A stretch of DNA of 64,000 nucleotides, taken from NCBI GenBank assembly GCA_964413885.1, contig CAYPTU010000001.1, positions 267,005-331,004 on the forward strand. Direction: 5' to 3'. A program made the position numbers and the translations under genes. Of this stretch, positions 4,927-27,183 are shown one piece after another; the first letter of the stretch is position 1; every line of letters begins with the position of its first letter. The DNA comes from an uncultured Novosphingobium sp. (GTDB lineage Bacteria > Pseudomonadota > Alphaproteobacteria > Sphingomonadales > Sphingomonadaceae). Under the pieces are notes generated by a model. It ran no database searches. It was not told where the DNA came from and saw only the letters and a list, made by a program, of their open reading frames with translations.

Positions 4927-5406
4927 ATGAAAACCATTGCCGATTTTACGGCCAAGCTGCCCGGCGGCGGCGAGCTCAATCTCGCTGACAAGGCCGGCAA
5001 GGTGCTGCTGGTGGTCAACACCGCCAGCAAGTGCGGCTTCACCCCGCAGTACGAAGGGCTGGAAGCGCTCTACAAGAAATACGCCGATGACGGATTTGAG
5101 GTGATTGCCTTCCCCTGCAACCAGTTCGGCGCGCAGGAACCCGGCAATGCCGAGGAAATCGCCAACTTCTGCAGCTTGAAGTATGATGTGACCTTCCCGC
5201 TGATGGCCAAGATTGACGTCAATGGTGACAATGCCGACCCGCTTTATGACTGGCTCAAGAGCGAGGCGCCGGGCCTGATGGGCACCAAGTCGATCAAGTG
5301 GAACTTCACCAAGTTCCTGATCGACCGCGATGGCAAGGTGGTGCGCCGCTATGCGCCGACCGATAAGCCCGGTGCGCTGGAAAAGGACATCAAGGCGCTG
5401 CTTTGA
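4927..5406 (+). CDS. Glutathione peroxidase family protein
   Basis: VNTASKCGFTPQYEGL, AFPCNQFGAQEPG and WNFTKFL. Confidence 0.95.
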   Translation: MKTIADFTAKLPGGGELNLADKAGKVLLVVNTASKCGFTPQYEGLEALYKKYADDGFEVIAFPCNQFGAQEPGNAEEIANFCSLKYDVTFPLMAKIDVNGDNADPLYDWLKSEAPGLMGTKSIKWNFTKFLIDRDGKVVRRYAPTDKPGALEKDIKALL

Positions 5407-20906: not shown

Positions 20907-22287
20907 TCAGGTCCTGACCGCTGCGCAGATGCGCGATGCGGAGCAGGCGCTGATTGCAGGCGGGGTTTCCGTTGACGAGCTGATGCAGCGCGCCGGTCGC
21001 GGCGCGGCCGAATGGGTCTGGCGGCTGAGTGGCGGCCGCTCCGTCACCGTGCTCTGTGGTCCGGGCAACAACGGCGGCGATGGCTATGTCATTGCCGAGG
21101 CGATCCGCCAGCGCGGCGGCGCGGTGCAGGTAATTGCGACCATTGACCCGAAGACTGCCGCCGCACGAACCGCGCGCGGGCTTTTCCAGGGCACGGTGCT
21201 TGAGCGTAATGCCGCGGTGCAGGGCGAAGTTCTGGTCGATTGCCTGTTCGGCACCGGCCTGACCCGCCCGCTGAATATTGACGACCTCGCCTTGCTCAAT
21301 CGCCTCGCCGCCAGTCATCCGCGCCGGGTGGCGATTGACCTGCCCAGCGGGGTTCATGCCGATAATGGCCTGATGCTCAATGCGGGCCTGCCGGATTGGC
21401 ACCTGACCCTGGCCTTGGGTGCCTGGAAGCCGGCGCACTTCCTCTTGCCTGCCGCCGCGATGATGGGCGATTTGCGGCTTGTCCCGATCGGGGTCGAGCC
21501 AGTGCCGGAAGCGGCGGTGCGGATAGCGCGGCCCCATCTGTCAGCGCCGGCGGCGGATGCTCACAAGTACAAGCGCGGCCTGCTGGGCGTGATCACCGGC
21601 GCCATGCCCGGCGCGGCACTGCTGGCAGCACGAGCGGCGCAGGGGGCGGGGGCGGGCTACGTCAAGCTGCTGGGCGCAGCAGAGGGCACTCCGCCCGATC
21701 TGGTGGTCGATCTCCAGCCACTGGCTGAAGCGCTGGCCGACAGCCGCTATGCCGCGCTGCTGGTCGGGCCGGGGCTGGGCCGCAATGCTGCCGCACGAGA
21801 GGCGCTGGCGCTCGCCCTGGCCGAACCGATCCCGGCTGTGGTCGATGCCGATGCCCTGATCCTGCTCAGCCCGCACAACCTGGCCGAGCGCGAAGCCCCG
21901 GTGATCGCCACGCCCCACGATGGGGAACTCTTCGCCCTCGAACGCGCCTTCGGCCTCGATGGCTCGGGCAGCAAGGTAGCGCGGGCAGAGGCCCTGGCCC
22001 GGGCCAGCGGCATGGTCGTGGTCGCCAAGGGAGGCGATACTCTGGTCGCCGCACCCGATGGCCGGGTGGCATTTGCACCGCGCGCTTCAACCTGGCTTTC
22101 GACGGCTGGGACCGGTGACGTGCTGGCGGGAACGATCGCCAGCCGACTGGCCAACGGCGCCGCCCCCTTTGCGGCGGCCTGTGAGGGTGCTTGGATCCAT
22201 TGTGCGGCCTCGTGGCACACCTCGGTGCCGTTCAGCGCCGCGCAGCTTGCAGAGCAGATAGCAAGGGCCTACGCGGCCTGTCTGTGA
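20890..22287 (+). CDS. nnr: Bifunctional NAD(P)HX epimerase/dehydratase (YjeF/Nnr)
   Basis: LMQRAG, GPGNNGGDG, VDCLFGTG, IDLPSG, HKYKRG, GPGLG, DADAL, TPHDGE and AGTGDVLAG. Confidence 0.93.
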   Translation: MPHDPDQVLTAAQMRDAEQALIAGGVSVDELMQRAGRGAAEWVWRLSGGRSVTVLCGPGNNGGDGYVIAEAIRQRGGAVQVIATIDPKTAAARTARGLFQGTVLERNAAVQGEVLVDCLFGTGLTRPLNIDDLALLNRLAASHPRRVAIDLPSGVHADNGLMLNAGLPDWHLTLALGAWKPAHFLLPAAAMMGDLRLVPIGVEPVPEAAVRIARPHLSAPAADAHKYKRGLLGVITGAMPGAALLAARAAQGAGAGYVKLLGAAEGTPPDLVVDLQPLAEALADSRYAALLVGPGLGRNAAAREALALALAEPIPAVVDADALILLSPHNLAEREAPVIATPHDGELFALERAFGLDGSGSKVARAEALARASGMVVVAKGGDTLVAAPDGRVAFAPRASTWLSTAGTGDVLAGTIASRLANGAAPFAAACEGAWIHCAASWHTSVPFSAAQLAEQIARAYAACL

Positions 22288-23546
22288 CCGATAGCGACGA
22301 AACCATCATCCGCATTGCCGCCAAGGGCGACGGCATTACCCCTTCCGGACGCTTCGCCTGGGGCGCCGCACCGGGCGATGTCTTGCGCGCCGACGGCGCG
22401 CTGGAATGGGGCCCGCACCACGTAACCCCGCCCTGCCGCCACTTCGCGCAGTGCGGCGGTTGCCAGCTTCAGCAGCTCGATGAAGAAAGCCTGGCAGACT
22501 TCGTCGCCGCGCGGGTCAGCAATGCGTCTTCCTCGCAAGAACTCGGCGCGGAACTGATCACCCCGCCGCATCTCTCGCCGCCAGCCAGCCGCCGCCGCGC
22601 TTCGCTGCGCGCGGAAAGCAGCCAGGGCCGGGTGGTGATCGGCTTCCGCGAAGCGCGCTCGCACCGGCTGGTCGAACTGGGCGAGTGCCCGGTGCTGCGG
22701 CCCGAAATCGTCGCAATTCTGCCGGACCTGCGCAAGCTGCTGATCAAGCTGGGGCAGGGGCAAGCGCCGAAAAAGGGCAAGGGCAAGCCGGGCAAACACG
22801 CCCATGTCAAGCTGGCCGCCGATATTGAGGTGACCGTTGCCGATCAGGGGCTCGACCTTGGCATCAAGGGTCTCAGCGCCGAGGGGTTGGCTCTTACCGA
22901 GCTGTTGCTCGATTTCGCGCGGGACCATGGCCTGGCGCGGCTTACGCTGGATGCGGGGTATGGTCCGGACACGGTCTGGGAGCCGGAACCTGTAACGGTT
23001 ACGCTGTCCGGCATTGCCGTACCACTTCCGCCCGGCGCTTTCCTGCAGGCGACGGCAGACGGCGAAGCGGCGCTGGTCGGGGCAGCAAAGGAATGGCTGG
23101 CTGGCAGCGCGACCGTGGTCGACCTGTTTTCTGGCCTAGGCACCTTTGCCTTCGCGCTGGCCGGGCCGGATACCAAGGTGCTGGCGGCCGAAGCAGACCG
23201 GGCGGCGCACCTGGCCTGCAAGGCGGCGGCCGGACGCACCGGACAGCCGGTTCACAGCCTCCACCGCGATCTGTTCCGCAATCCGCTGCAAGCCGATGAA
23301 CTCAATCGCTTTGCCGCCGTCGTGCTTGATCCGCCCCGCGCAGGTGCGCGCGAACAGGTCGAGCGGATCGCCGACAGCACCGTCAGCAAGGTGGTCTACA
23401 TCAGCTGCAATCCCGCCAGCTGGGCCAAGGATGCCCGAACGCTGGTCGAAGCGGGGTATGTGCTCAAGGAACTGCGCCCGGTCGGCCAGTTCCGCTGGTC
23501 AACGCACGTCGAACTGGCGAGCCTGTTCGTGCGAGAAGACGCGTGA
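22284..23546 (+). CDS. RNA m5U methyltransferase (RlmD/TrmA family)
   Basis: PPCRHFAQCGGCQLQ (Fe-S), FLQAT, VDLFSGLGTF, LDPPRAG and YISCNP. Confidence 0.9.
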   Translation: MTDSDETIIRIAAKGDGITPSGRFAWGAAPGDVLRADGALEWGPHHVTPPCRHFAQCGGCQLQQLDEESLADFVAARVSNASSSQELGAELITPPHLSPPASRRRASLRAESSQGRVVIGFREARSHRLVELGECPVLRPEIVAILPDLRKLLIKLGQGQAPKKGKGKPGKHAHVKLAADIEVTVADQGLDLGIKGLSAEGLALTELLLDFARDHGLARLTLDAGYGPDTVWEPEPVTVTLSGIAVPLPPGAFLQATADGEAALVGAAKEWLAGSATVVDLFSGLGTFAFALAGPDTKVLAAEADRAAHLACKAAAGRTGQPVHSLHRDLFRNPLQADELNRFAAVVLDPPRAGAREQVERIADSTVSKVVYISCNPASWAKDARTLVEAGYVLKELRPVGQFRWSTHVELASLFVREDA

Positions 23547-23860
23547 TGAAGTTCTTCGTGGTGACCATGACCCACCCGGACGGCCCTGGCTGGGGCGAGC
23601 ATGTGATGCCGCACGTTGAATATCTCAACGGGCTGATTGCCCAGGGCAAGCTGCGCGCCTCTGGCCCGGTGGTGGGCAGTTCGCTGCGCGCGGGCCTGTT
23701 GATTTTCACGGTGCAGGACAGGGCCGAACTGGATGCGCTGATTGCGGCGGATCCGTTCGCGATTGAAGGCCTGATCGAGGAACTGATCGTGACCGAATGG
23801 AACCCGCTGTTTGGTGCCTTCGCTGCCGAAGCCGCGCCTTACGCACCACCGGCCAACTAG
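23543..23860 (+). CDS. YciI family protein
   Basis: HVEYL...G.LRASGP and LIAADPF pattern. Confidence 0.75.
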   Translation: MMKFFVVTMTHPDGPGWGEHVMPHVEYLNGLIAQGKLRASGPVVGSSLRAGLLIFTVQDRAELDALIAADPFAIEGLIEELIVTEWNPLFGAFAAEAAPYAPPAN

Positions 23861-23870
23861 CGCGGCCTGC

Positions 23871-23906
23871 CAAAAGCAAATGGGGCCGGTGTCGCCACCA
23901 GCCCCA
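23871..23906 (-). terminator. Intrinsic terminator of a leftward (minus-strand) transcript
   Basis: Minus strand: TGGGGCTGGTG-GCGA-CACCGGCCCCA followed by TTTGCTTTT. No U-tract on the plus side. Confidence 0.8.
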
Positions 23907-24495
23907 CGCTACGCCTTCTGCGGTTCCAGGCGAGTTGGGCGATCGCCGTTCCGGGGTTTTCGTGAACAGTTGAGCCGCGGTGATGCGTTTCGGTCACCTC
24001 GCGTGCCATCGCACCGTGAGTGCGATTGCCTTTAGGGACTTGGCATCGTGATGCTCGTCGCATCGGGCCTGTTCCGCCGGGCCGAAGCCTGGCTTCACAC
24101 ACTGTCTCGCACATTCCGGCTGGCTCCAAAGAGCCGGCGCTCATCGCCCGGTATCGCTCCCGGCGTCCGGTCCCGTCAGGCGGTTGGTTCCGGCCCGAAA
24201 GCCTTTCCCATTCCGCCTGGCGGTTCCGAAGCTGCTTCCCGCCCGCCGTTCCGACTTTCCGTCTGCCTGACCGAAGCCACGCTTTCCATCTGCCTTCCCG
24301 ACTGCTGCGAAACAGCCTTCCTGACTGCGCGCCGCTCGCTGCATCTGCGGTTCGCGTGAGTGGCTCCGAAGAGCTTTTCCCGCGTGTTTTCCGACACTGC
24401 TGCGGGCATCGCTGCCAGCATCTGAAGGTTATGTTTTCCCCATTCCTTTCAGCGGTTTCCCACCGGAAGTTCAGGTTCGGTTTAACCTCCCGACA
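23871..24495 (-). ncRNA. Candidate large (~620 nt) structured noncoding RNA, family unrecognised
   Basis: No protein-like ORF. Multiple UUCG/UUUG tetraloop hairpins in minus orientation, about 19 GGAA motifs, an intrinsic terminator, and an upstream sigma70-like promoter. The 5' end is inferred from the promoter. Confidence 0.7.
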
Positions 24496-24500
24496 CCTGA

Positions 24501-24529
24501 AAGCTGCGCCCCAATCCTGAGTCGCACAA
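24501..24529 (-). promoter_or_regulatory. Putative sigma70 promoter with a GANTC (CcrM) site in the spacer
   Basis: Minus strand: TTGTGC (24529-24524), 17-nt spacer, CAGCTT (24506-24501). GAGTC at 24519-24523 lies within TGAGTCG. Confidence 0.55.
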
Positions 24530-24545
24530 GCTGGAAAATGCGGAG

Positions 24546-24578
24546 TTATCCACAGACGCCATGTTTGGCGGTGGATAA
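24546..24578. promoter_or_regulatory. Pair of inverted DnaA boxes
   Basis: Perfect TTATCCACA at 24546-24554. GGTGGATAA at 24570-24578 is TTATCCACC on the minus strand (1 mismatch). Confidence 0.7.
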
Positions 24579-24629
24579 CCCGGCCCTTGCAGTGGACAGA
24601 TTTGAGCCGCGCCTCGCCAGCGCGGATTT

Positions 24630-25844
<1,215 letters not shown>

Positions 25845-25908
25845 TGACTGAGACTCCCGCTGGAATTGCGGGGGCGCGGCTAGCAGGTGGGGGGGCTGGG
25901 TGCAACCG

Positions 25909-27183
25909 CTACTCGGCCGCGGCGCGCTCCAGGTGCCAGACCGGGGTGGCTTCGGCAGCCGCAAGCCGTGCCGCTTCGGCCGTGATGTAATCGCGTGTCA
26001 GCGGCAGCACGCCTGCGCGCTTCGTGGCCTGGACGTGGAAGTTGACCATCGAGCCATTGCGAAAGCCCTGTTCGGCGCCGACCAGATAGAACTGCCACAT
26101 GCGGTAGAAACGCGCGTCGAACATCGCCTCGATCTCGGTGCGGTGCAGGCCCGCCCGCCGATACCATTCGGCCAGTGTCCAAGCATAATGCATCCGCAAT
26201 TCTTCAATGTCCGCGATCTTCCACCCGGTCTGCTCATGCGCGATGGCGAGGTCGCTGACGCAGGGCAGATAGTGGCCGGGAAAGATGTATTTGCGCACCC
26301 AGGCATCGGTCGCGCCGGACATACCCGGTTTGCCGATGGCGTGGGTCAGCATCACGCCGCCATCGGCCAGCAGGCCAAAGGTTTTGCCGAAATATTCCTC
26401 GTAATGCGGCTTCCCGAGGTGTTCGATCATCCCGATCGAGCTGATCCGGTCAAACGTGCCGGTCACATCGCGATAGTCGATCAGTTCAAACTTCACCTTG
26501 TCGGCTACGCCTGCCGCTTCGGCACGCTCATTGGCGAACTTGACCTGGTCTGGCGCCAGGCTGACGCCGAGCACTTCGCAGCCGTAATGCTTGTTCAGGA
26601 ATAGCCCGAACCCGCCCCAGCCGCAGCCGATATCGAGTACGCGGAGATGACTGGCATCGCGCGGCAGGTTGAGTTTCGCCGAGATCAGGGCCTTTTTGTC
26701 CACCTGCGCCTGCTCCAGCGAGTTTGCCGGATCGGTGAAATAGGCCATCGAGTACATCCGGTCCTCATCGAGGAACAGTTCATAGAACTCGCGCGTCAGG
26801 CCATAGTGGTGGACCACGTTCTTACTGGCGCGGCTGCGGTAATTGATCTGATCCAGCCGCGATCCCAGCCGGTCAAACAGCTTGCGGGCCGGGCTGGGCG
26901 GCTTGAGCGAGCCGCCCGATCTAGCGGCATTGGCCATGACCAGCAGCACCATGTCGCGGATATCATGCGGTGGCTCCACGACCAGCCGGCCATCGGTATA
27001 GGCTTCACCCGCACCCAGCCGCGGATTGCGGGCGATAGTGATCGCGGCGCGCCGGTCAGTCAGCCGGATGGTAACCGGATCGCAAGCCAGATCGCCATAG
27101 CGATGCTCGCTGCCGTCATGATCGATAATCCGCAGCTGACCTTGCCGGATCAGCGCCCGCAGCATTTTGTCCAGCAGCCACAT
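25909..27183 (-). CDS. Cyclopropane-fatty-acyl-phospholipid synthase family methyltransferase
   Basis: [43 protein letters not shown] and FYRMWQFYL. Confidence 0.9.

Follow-up and report, generated by a model that had tools for sequence, protein, structure and literature searches.

We report that the tetranucleotide GGAA is strongly and specifically enriched in a very abundant RNA encoded downstream of argG, on the minus strand of the window (the whole 64-kb stretch of DNA analysed here), that most copies of the motif fall in internal loops flanked by covarying helices, and that the array is expanded in one clade of the RNA's relatives. In our view the motifs are structural units that this independently transcribed RNA of about 620 nt uses repeatedly in its folded 5' domain. 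Our preferred reading, held tentatively and with somewhat less than even confidence, is that the GGAA loops constitute a multivalent structured docking platform for a putative partner, most likely a protein.

The host RNA and its relatives

The array lies in a gap of 770 nt that is bounded on one side by the stop codon of argG (24630-25964, minus strand), whose product matches the Pfam argininosuccinate synthase family, and on the other by a convergent gene of the YCII family ending at 23860. Contigs from four metatranscriptomes cover 23911-24486 only, with a word depth of 60-960 in the RNA against 0-70 in argG and 0 in the downstream gene, which makes the RNA 10-100 times as abundant as its neighbours. 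DNA depth is flat across 2 kb in four DNA metagenomes holding the same sequence, and the region is single-copy in DNA. Because the contigs are limited to this interval at high depth and DNA depth is flat, the source is a discrete, very abundant transcript of about 620 nt (23872-24496, minus strand), with a predicted start near 24496-24490 and a 3' end in the T-run after the terminator; the initial annotation had placed the motifs inside a large RNA, and this is borne out. The terminator is an intrinsic hairpin of 12 bp followed by the U-run UUUGCUUUU (23880-23907, minus strand), and its motif is conserved enough to retrieve at least 119 loci. The consensus structure described below has 95.4% of its cells paired when read on the minus strand, compared with 81.1% if read on the plus strand, and includes 142 G.U pairs; since the terminator and these G.U pairs fit the minus strand only, we assign the RNA to it.

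A coding region was rejected, as ORFs on the RNA strand are not conserved and differ in start, length and frame between close relatives; long ORFs arise by chance because the RNA is U-poor (13% U and 59% purine over 23872-24496). This U-poverty and the depletion of Shine-Dalgarno-like tetramers give the impression that ribosome binding and U-rich nuclease sites are being avoided. Our data suggest that freshwater, estuarine and marine samples express many related forms of the RNA. In metatranscriptomes (24043-24420, runs X25-X28), contigs of close variants carry many substitutions and 1-nt indels in the region of the variable arm, as well as several 'skip' joints, which were set aside, their anchors being only 20-30 nt long and lying in repeated words. 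The neighbouring genes at 22191-23546 (plus strand) and 25909-27183 (minus strand) include tRNA/rRNA (uracil-5)-methyltransferase-like and cyclopropane-fatty-acid-synthase-like methyltransferase proteins, with no apparent link to the RNA.

The loci retrieved by the terminator-motif scan belong nearly all to Erythrobacteraceae or Novosphingobium, and comprise 108 distinct homologues among the matches listed; argG is the immediate upstream neighbour, in the same orientation, at 100 of the 102 evaluable loci of these two groups, again among the matches listed. The ArgG of the window is 98% identical to that of Novosphingobium strain APW14. The element is also found 3' of argG in Croceicoccus, Pontixanthobacter, Erythrobacter, Citromicrobium, Blastomonas and others, and is absent from this position in some Novosphingobium and in Sphingopyxis, Sphingobium and Sphingomonas. 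Family members, about 460-730 nt long, occur in more than 100 species of Erythrobacteraceae/Novosphingobium and include two subtypes: type N, Novosphingobium-like, with 15-17 members including the window, and type E, with about 75 members that carry the block CCGGYGCGAGCGCC. In one homologue (L013), a run of repeated units of about 40 nt (...CCATGGTGGCT...) lies downstream of the terminator, at 4930-5150.

This RNA family is new, being described in neither Rfam 15 nor the searchable literature. Rfam 15 gave nothing relevant for the window at gathering score, for 23500-24900 at E ≤ 10 or for 15 homologous loci at gathering score, ARAGORN found neither a tRNA nor a tmRNA in the region, and literature on ncRNAs of Novosphingobium, Erythrobacter and Sphingomonadales, on GGAA-binding bacterial proteins and on alphaproteobacterial CsrA held no description of the RNA that we could find. 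Two apparent likenesses, one to domain IV of the E. coli 4.5S RNA (AAGGCAGAUG, GGAAGCAGC) and one to RNase P CR-I in the homologue L133 (GAAAGUCCGGGC), were put down to chance, as neither was matched by the Rfam models.

The RNA is a large structured orphan ncRNA in that it is longer than 400 nt, non-coding, conserved and endowed with a covariation-supported fold. It resembles OLE, ROOL, GOLLD and raiA RNAs in its size class (about 500-650 nt), elaborate covarying fold, conserved blocks, abundance in transcriptomes and restriction to a clade. It differs from them in its occurrence in Sphingomonadales, theirs being a different phylum-level distribution, in its U-poverty and GGAA/GAAA loop theme, and in having no conserved partner genes nearby except for the synteny with argG; covariance models of OLE, ROOL, GOLLD, raiA, HEARO and IMES in Rfam 15 gave no match. 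A highly expressed, clade-wide structured RNA of about 620 nt would join the short list of large bacterial orphan RNAs.

Enrichment and specificity of GGAA

Counted as TTCC on the plus strand, 19 GGAA motifs lie between 23924 and 24460, 15 of them within a core of 286 nt (24180-24465, minus strand), in agreement with the counts first given, while the plus strand of 23924-24460 itself carries no GGAA. The core is the GGAA maximum of the entire window (15 compared with a mean of 1.1 per 286 nt). The initial annotation had put the chance expectation at 2-3 per 600 nt, which is too low because composition (59% purine, 13% U) was ignored: the whole RNA is expected to hold 4.3 motifs on mononucleotide frequencies and 6.3 in dinucleotide-preserving shuffles, and the core 3.5 in shuffles of the latter kind. 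Measured against shuffled sequence the excess is extreme, the observed counts of 19 and 15 being reached by none of 5000 shuffles (z = 5.6-5.9 for the whole transcript, 7.0-7.3 within the core), and GGAA ranks top of all 3-5-mers in both the RNA and the core.

The enrichment is also specific. Among the 16 purine tetramers, GGAA and GAAA stand at 3.4 and 3.05 times expectation in type-N RNAs, the remaining G2A2 permutations at 0.4-1.4 times, and GGAG, GAGG, AGGG and GGGG at only 0.2-0.35 times; type E has a GGAA bias of the same kind at lower amplitude (2.5 times). The favoured context is C-GGAA-(A/C), with CGGAAC the commonest word and a C before the motif in 55% of cases, and the spacing between motifs has its mode at 12-14 nt. 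In E. coli 16S, 23S and RNase P RNA we found no GGAA excess (ratio 0.8-1.5, z -0.6 to 1.3). Because these controls are flat and other G/A tetramers are depleted, the excess is neither a generic trait of folded RNAs nor mere purine richness, and both explanations were rejected. An array of binding sites at the DNA level is likewise unlikely, given the strand asymmetry (19 versus 0), the high transcription and the single-copy DNA.

A subtler compositional origin is rather improbable in our view. In a U-poor, stable, non-translated RNA, surplus A's would be left in loops beside the ends of G-C helices while Shine-Dalgarno-like words (GGAG, GAGG, AGGA) are avoided, so that GGAA and GAAA would be a functionless default. 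The base composition of the RNA (U 13%, purines 59%) fits this account, as do the level of Shine-Dalgarno-like tetramers (0.2-0.8 times expectation), the weaker bias of the same kind in type E (2.5 times) and the conservation of motif bases, which does not exceed that of other loop bases. Yet GAGA, AGAG, AGAA and AAGA, which are not Shine-Dalgarno-like, are also depleted (0.4-0.5 times), GGAA stands 2.4-fold above AAGG, the excess survives dinucleotide-preserving shuffles, and two extended GGAA-bearing words, CGGAACGGCG and GCCAGSCGGAAUG, each occur twice.

Two pairs of near-identical modules had been noted in the core and both are real: 24255-24274 and 24282-24301 are 85% identical over 20 nt, and 24292-24305 and 24315-24328 are 93% identical over 14 nt. 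The accompanying statement that they are spaced by UUCG hairpins is right for the first pair, separated by the hairpin GUGGCUUCGGUCA, and applies only loosely to the second, separated by GCUGUUUCGCAGC. UUCG occurs five times in the core against 1.3 expected, a count matched in 12 of 5000 shuffles. TRF found no tandem array and the direct repeats are short and dispersed, and we therefore rejected a tandem repeat or duplication array; in the predicted fold, these repeated modules are the 5' and 3' strands of a variable arm, flanking its hairpins.

Fold of the 5' half and position of the motifs

The fold was derived from an alignment (A1) of the 5' halves of 15 type-N sequences. Its consensus contains 66 pairs, with 95.4% of cells paired and compensatory double changes at 21 of the pairs; in 500 shuffles no measure was equalled, and slid partners are only 28-46% paired. 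Helix P3 (24321-24418, minus strand; A1 columns 82-108 with 169-194) encloses an invariant loop and the hairpin GCUCUUCGGAGC, with helix 5 being 96.8% paired over 21 pairs and compensatory changes found in helices 6-7. The invariant UCGGAAAACACG (24383-24394, minus strand) is identical in 15 of 15 sequences of A1 and unpaired in the consensus, GGAAAACA forming the 5' side of an internal loop. The two sides of this loop, UCGGAAAACACG (24383-24394) and CACGCGAACCGCAGAUGC (24341-24358), are almost invariant in the 15 type-N sequences, and no other unpaired bases of the 5' half are as well conserved.

Next to P3 lies the variable arm (24230-24317, minus strand), in which short helices alternate with purine-only internal loops that bear GGAA on one or both strands, up to the apical hairpin GUGGCUUCGGUCA. 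Minimum free energy folds of 24317-24230, computed for each of 15 homologues singly, give the same rod-like arm with a UUCG-type cap; in L081, for example, GGGU/ACCU and GAUCG/CGAUC stand in place of the arm helices GGC/GUC and GC/GC of the window. On the sequence alignment, 76.7% of the arm model is paired, against 24-43% for slid partners.

The P6 module (24169-24233, minus strand) comprises CGGAACC, the helix CAGGCGG/CCGCCUG, GG/CC, a 4x4 loop GAAA/GGAA, the hairpin GGCU-UUCG-GGCC and ACGGGACC. Its helices 10-12 are 96-100% paired, with compensatory changes in four pairs, and helix P6 itself (24223-24173) places the 4x4 GAAA/GGAA loop beneath the UUCG hairpin, between the flanks CGGAACC and ACGGRACC. 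With the covariance model R1 the module is recovered in type N and in intermediates and, with weaker matches, in type E, and the flanking words occur in 46-47 of the 108 homologues among the matches listed, compared with 4-5 in shuffles.

At the base of the arm, two mutually exclusive pairings of GGCUGUU (24317-24311) are both supported. One forms a hairpin locally (A1 columns 198-204 with 210-216) and has four compensatory pairs; in the other, a more distant strand pairs with GGCUGUU to close the long arm. Covariation with GGCUGUU is seen for either partner, even in the divergent homologue L118, which hints at alternative folds at 24300-24317 versus 24230-24238. The competing pairings alter the status of a single GGAA, at 24236.

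The initial annotation had proposed testing whether the motifs are unpaired, and in the predicted structures they mostly are. In the thermodynamic ensembles of 17 type-N RNAs, P(unpaired) is 0.66 for GGAA bases against 0.35 elsewhere and reaches 0.89 for the A's of the motif; in the consensus structure of the window, the GAA of almost every motif is left unpaired, and the motif's first G is often the closing base of a helix. By loop type, 58% of motif AA dinucleotides fall in internal loops, 17% in hairpin loops, 8.5% in multiloops and 6% in helices. The 121 GGAA-bearing internal loops, whose counts are not independent because they come from thermodynamic predictions on 15-17 related sequences, are mostly symmetric (2x2, n = 23; 4x4, n = 21; 3x3, n = 13) and 70% of them are all-purine, the commonest being GAAA/GGAA (13), AA/GA (11), AA/AA (10) and GGAA/GGAA (4).

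Conservation in homologues, also put forward for testing at the outset, is seen only in part: most sites recur in close relatives, but single sites barely exceed other loop bases in conservation and many type-E members are at chance. Two motifs are invariant within type N, namely UCGGAAAACACG at 24394-24383 and CGGAACC at 24228-24222, 5' of P6. Of the remaining 13 core motifs, ten occur at the same column in 4-12 of the 15 type-N sequences (most in 6-12), while those at 24377, 24318 and 24295 do so in only 1-4 of 15, the last of these with a motif no more than 3 columns away in nine of the 15; the number of GGAA in the 5' half varies from 6 to 16 across type N. Conservation of motif bases shows no excess over that of other unpaired bases (0.73 versus 0.69, p 0.36), with a slight excess in the variable arm (0.71 versus 0.60, p ~0.03, uncorrected for phylogeny). 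Across the 108 homologues among the matches listed, an average of 8.0 GGAA per 480 nt compares with an expectation of 4.5, and the median z is 1.4; z exceeds 3.5 only in the Novosphingobium-type clade and a few others, and many Erythrobacter and Qipengyuania RNAs have GGAA at chance. It therefore seems that the array is not needed for the general role of the family.

These observations bear directly on a purely architectural role, which we consider unlikely. The purine loops would then serve the RNA's own folding, through tandem G.A/A.A stacks, A-minor contacts and possibly self-assembly, and the high motif count would simply mirror the number of loops, with no repeated external ligand. Such a role is consistent with symmetric, all-purine loops, covarying flanking helices, two invariant motifs within conserved blocks and the large, highly structured nature of the RNA. 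It sits less well with the turnover of most sites between close relatives and the range of 6 to 16 in the 5' half, with the many type-E members that fold with chance-level GGAA, and with the lack of such an excess in generic structured RNAs. Even if the loops are purely architectural, they document an unusual U-poor, purine-loop style of building.

Candidate partners and possible upstream control

We favour a repeated recognition or packing surface over incidental loops because of the specificity of the motif, its CsrB-like density, and the site turnover and lineage expansion in an abundant RNA. In the predicted fold, the first G typically closes a short G-C-rich helix and the GAA lies in a symmetric purine-only internal loop or at a junction, so that the domain consists of rod-like arms in which helices of 2-6 bp alternate with purine-purine loops. 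Under our preferred reading, the loops may form non-canonical G.A/A.A stacks, and together they could offer several copies of a single partner a repeated, structured docking surface, so that the RNA would work as a scaffold or titrator. As partner we consider a protein that reads purine-rich internal loops most likely, and other parts or further copies of the RNA itself less likely; in the Novosphingobium lineage, the array would have gained sites.

Short helices broken by G/A-only loops, as predicted here, also characterise kink turns and stem IIB of the HIV-1 RRE with its protein Rev, although this is a resemblance only. Known G/A-only loops form G.A/A.A pairs recognised by proteins; on the RRE, several protein copies do so cooperatively. 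A kink turn is built from a C-stem, a 3-nt bulge, tandem sheared G.A/A.G pairs and an NC-stem, whereas the loops predicted here are mainly symmetric, from 2x2 to 4x4. With its GGAA loops the array varies two themes already known, the multivalent RNA platform and the purine-rich internal loop that serves as a recognition site; in OLE, a purine-rich internal motif (a kink turn) is used for protein recognition (PMC9723947). If bound by a protein, the array would have a new geometry within a new large RNA, and its loops offer a concrete, mutable handle for finding the partner.

Multivalent platforms are known from the Csr/Rsm sponges, and the initial annotation had proposed a Csr-like architecture with a different partner. 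In a Csr/Rsm-like sponge, GGAA motifs in single strands or exposed loops would sequester a small RNA-binding protein in many copies and thereby free the mRNAs that it targets. Like CsrB, CsrC and RsmX/Y/Z, the RNA is an abundant ncRNA with an intrinsic terminator and a number of sites that varies among relatives, and like CsrB it carries many short words containing G-G-A: the core has 16 GGA in 286 nt, 15 of them as GGAA (z 3.4 and 7.0), which corresponds to 5.6 GGA and 5.2 GGAA per 100 nt, while E. coli CsrB has 22 GGA in 369 nt (z 2.8), or 6.0 per 100 nt. The very high abundance of the RNA, the turnover of sites in number and position, and the spacing mode of 12-14 nt are likewise in keeping with a sponge. 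We nonetheless regard it as decidedly improbable. The motif is a C-preceded GGAA and not A(N)GGA, and the CsrA context is at or below chance in the RNA, with A(N)GGA found 3 times against 4.3 expected, AGGA twice against 4.3, and CANGGANG absent in the same scan. The sites are predicted mostly in symmetric internal loops (58%) and not in apical loops (17%) or single-stranded linkers, and the RNA is about twice as long as CsrB/Rsm RNAs, with long covarying helices. It has no Csr/Rsm match in Rfam, and the 200 nt upstream lack a GacA/UvrY box (TGTAAG-N6-CTTACA) and carry DnaA-like sites instead. The internal-loop location and the non-Csr context thus speak against a CsrB-type string of exposed sites.

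A tblastn search found no gene for CsrA, Hfq or ProQ within the 64-kb window, and 299 plasmid csrA matches included no sphingomonad among the organism names listed. To our knowledge, most Alphaproteobacteria are reported to lack CsrA, and Sphingomonadales, like most members of that class, have few characterised global RNA regulators. If the partner of the GGAA loops binds in many copies, the array would represent a second, independently evolved multivalent platform beside Csr/Rsm, made of internal and not hairpin loops.

Binding of Hfq through ARN repeats on its distal face had been raised as well, but the RNA has no run of three or more ARN triplets, compared with 1.4 in shuffles. An RNA sponge, in which the GGAA sites base-pair with UUCC-containing sRNAs or mRNAs, appears highly improbable. 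The RNA has almost no UUCC of its own (no plus-strand GGAA in 23924-24460), and its GGAA motifs therefore cannot be masked by canonical pairing in cis, which speaks for such a sponge; however, 4-nt sites within 2x2 to 4x4 internal loops make poor seeds, a longer shared complementary word was not seen among them, and the (ARN)n site for Hfq, the usual aid to pairing, is absent.

A more elaborate form of the preferred reading, which we hold to be unlikely, would make this locus a new protein-titration or scaffold system, in a clade presumed to lack CsrA, in which a promoter with DnaA boxes drives an RNA with up to about 20 structured GGAA loops that gathers many copies of a putative RNA-binding protein, the number of sites being tuned by lineage.

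Upstream of the RNA, the element CTTGTGCGACTC (24519-24530, minus strand), with a -35-like TTGTGC, is conserved in nearly all type-N and many type-E homologues; a sigma-70 consensus scan returned no promoter, and its putative promoter role is suggested by position and conservation. Because this promoter region carries conserved DnaA boxes, the RNA may be tied to replication or growth status, and the boxes would link an abundant RNA to the replication initiator. Just upstream of CTTGTGCGACTC lie three DnaA-box-like sites (24546-24598, minus strand), namely TGTCCAC at 24598-24592, TTATCCAC at 24578-24571 and the inverted GTGGATAA at 24553-24546. They suggest that the RNA is under DnaA control, and 86 of 105 homologues among the matches listed retain at least one perfect TTATCCAC in the corresponding zone upstream.
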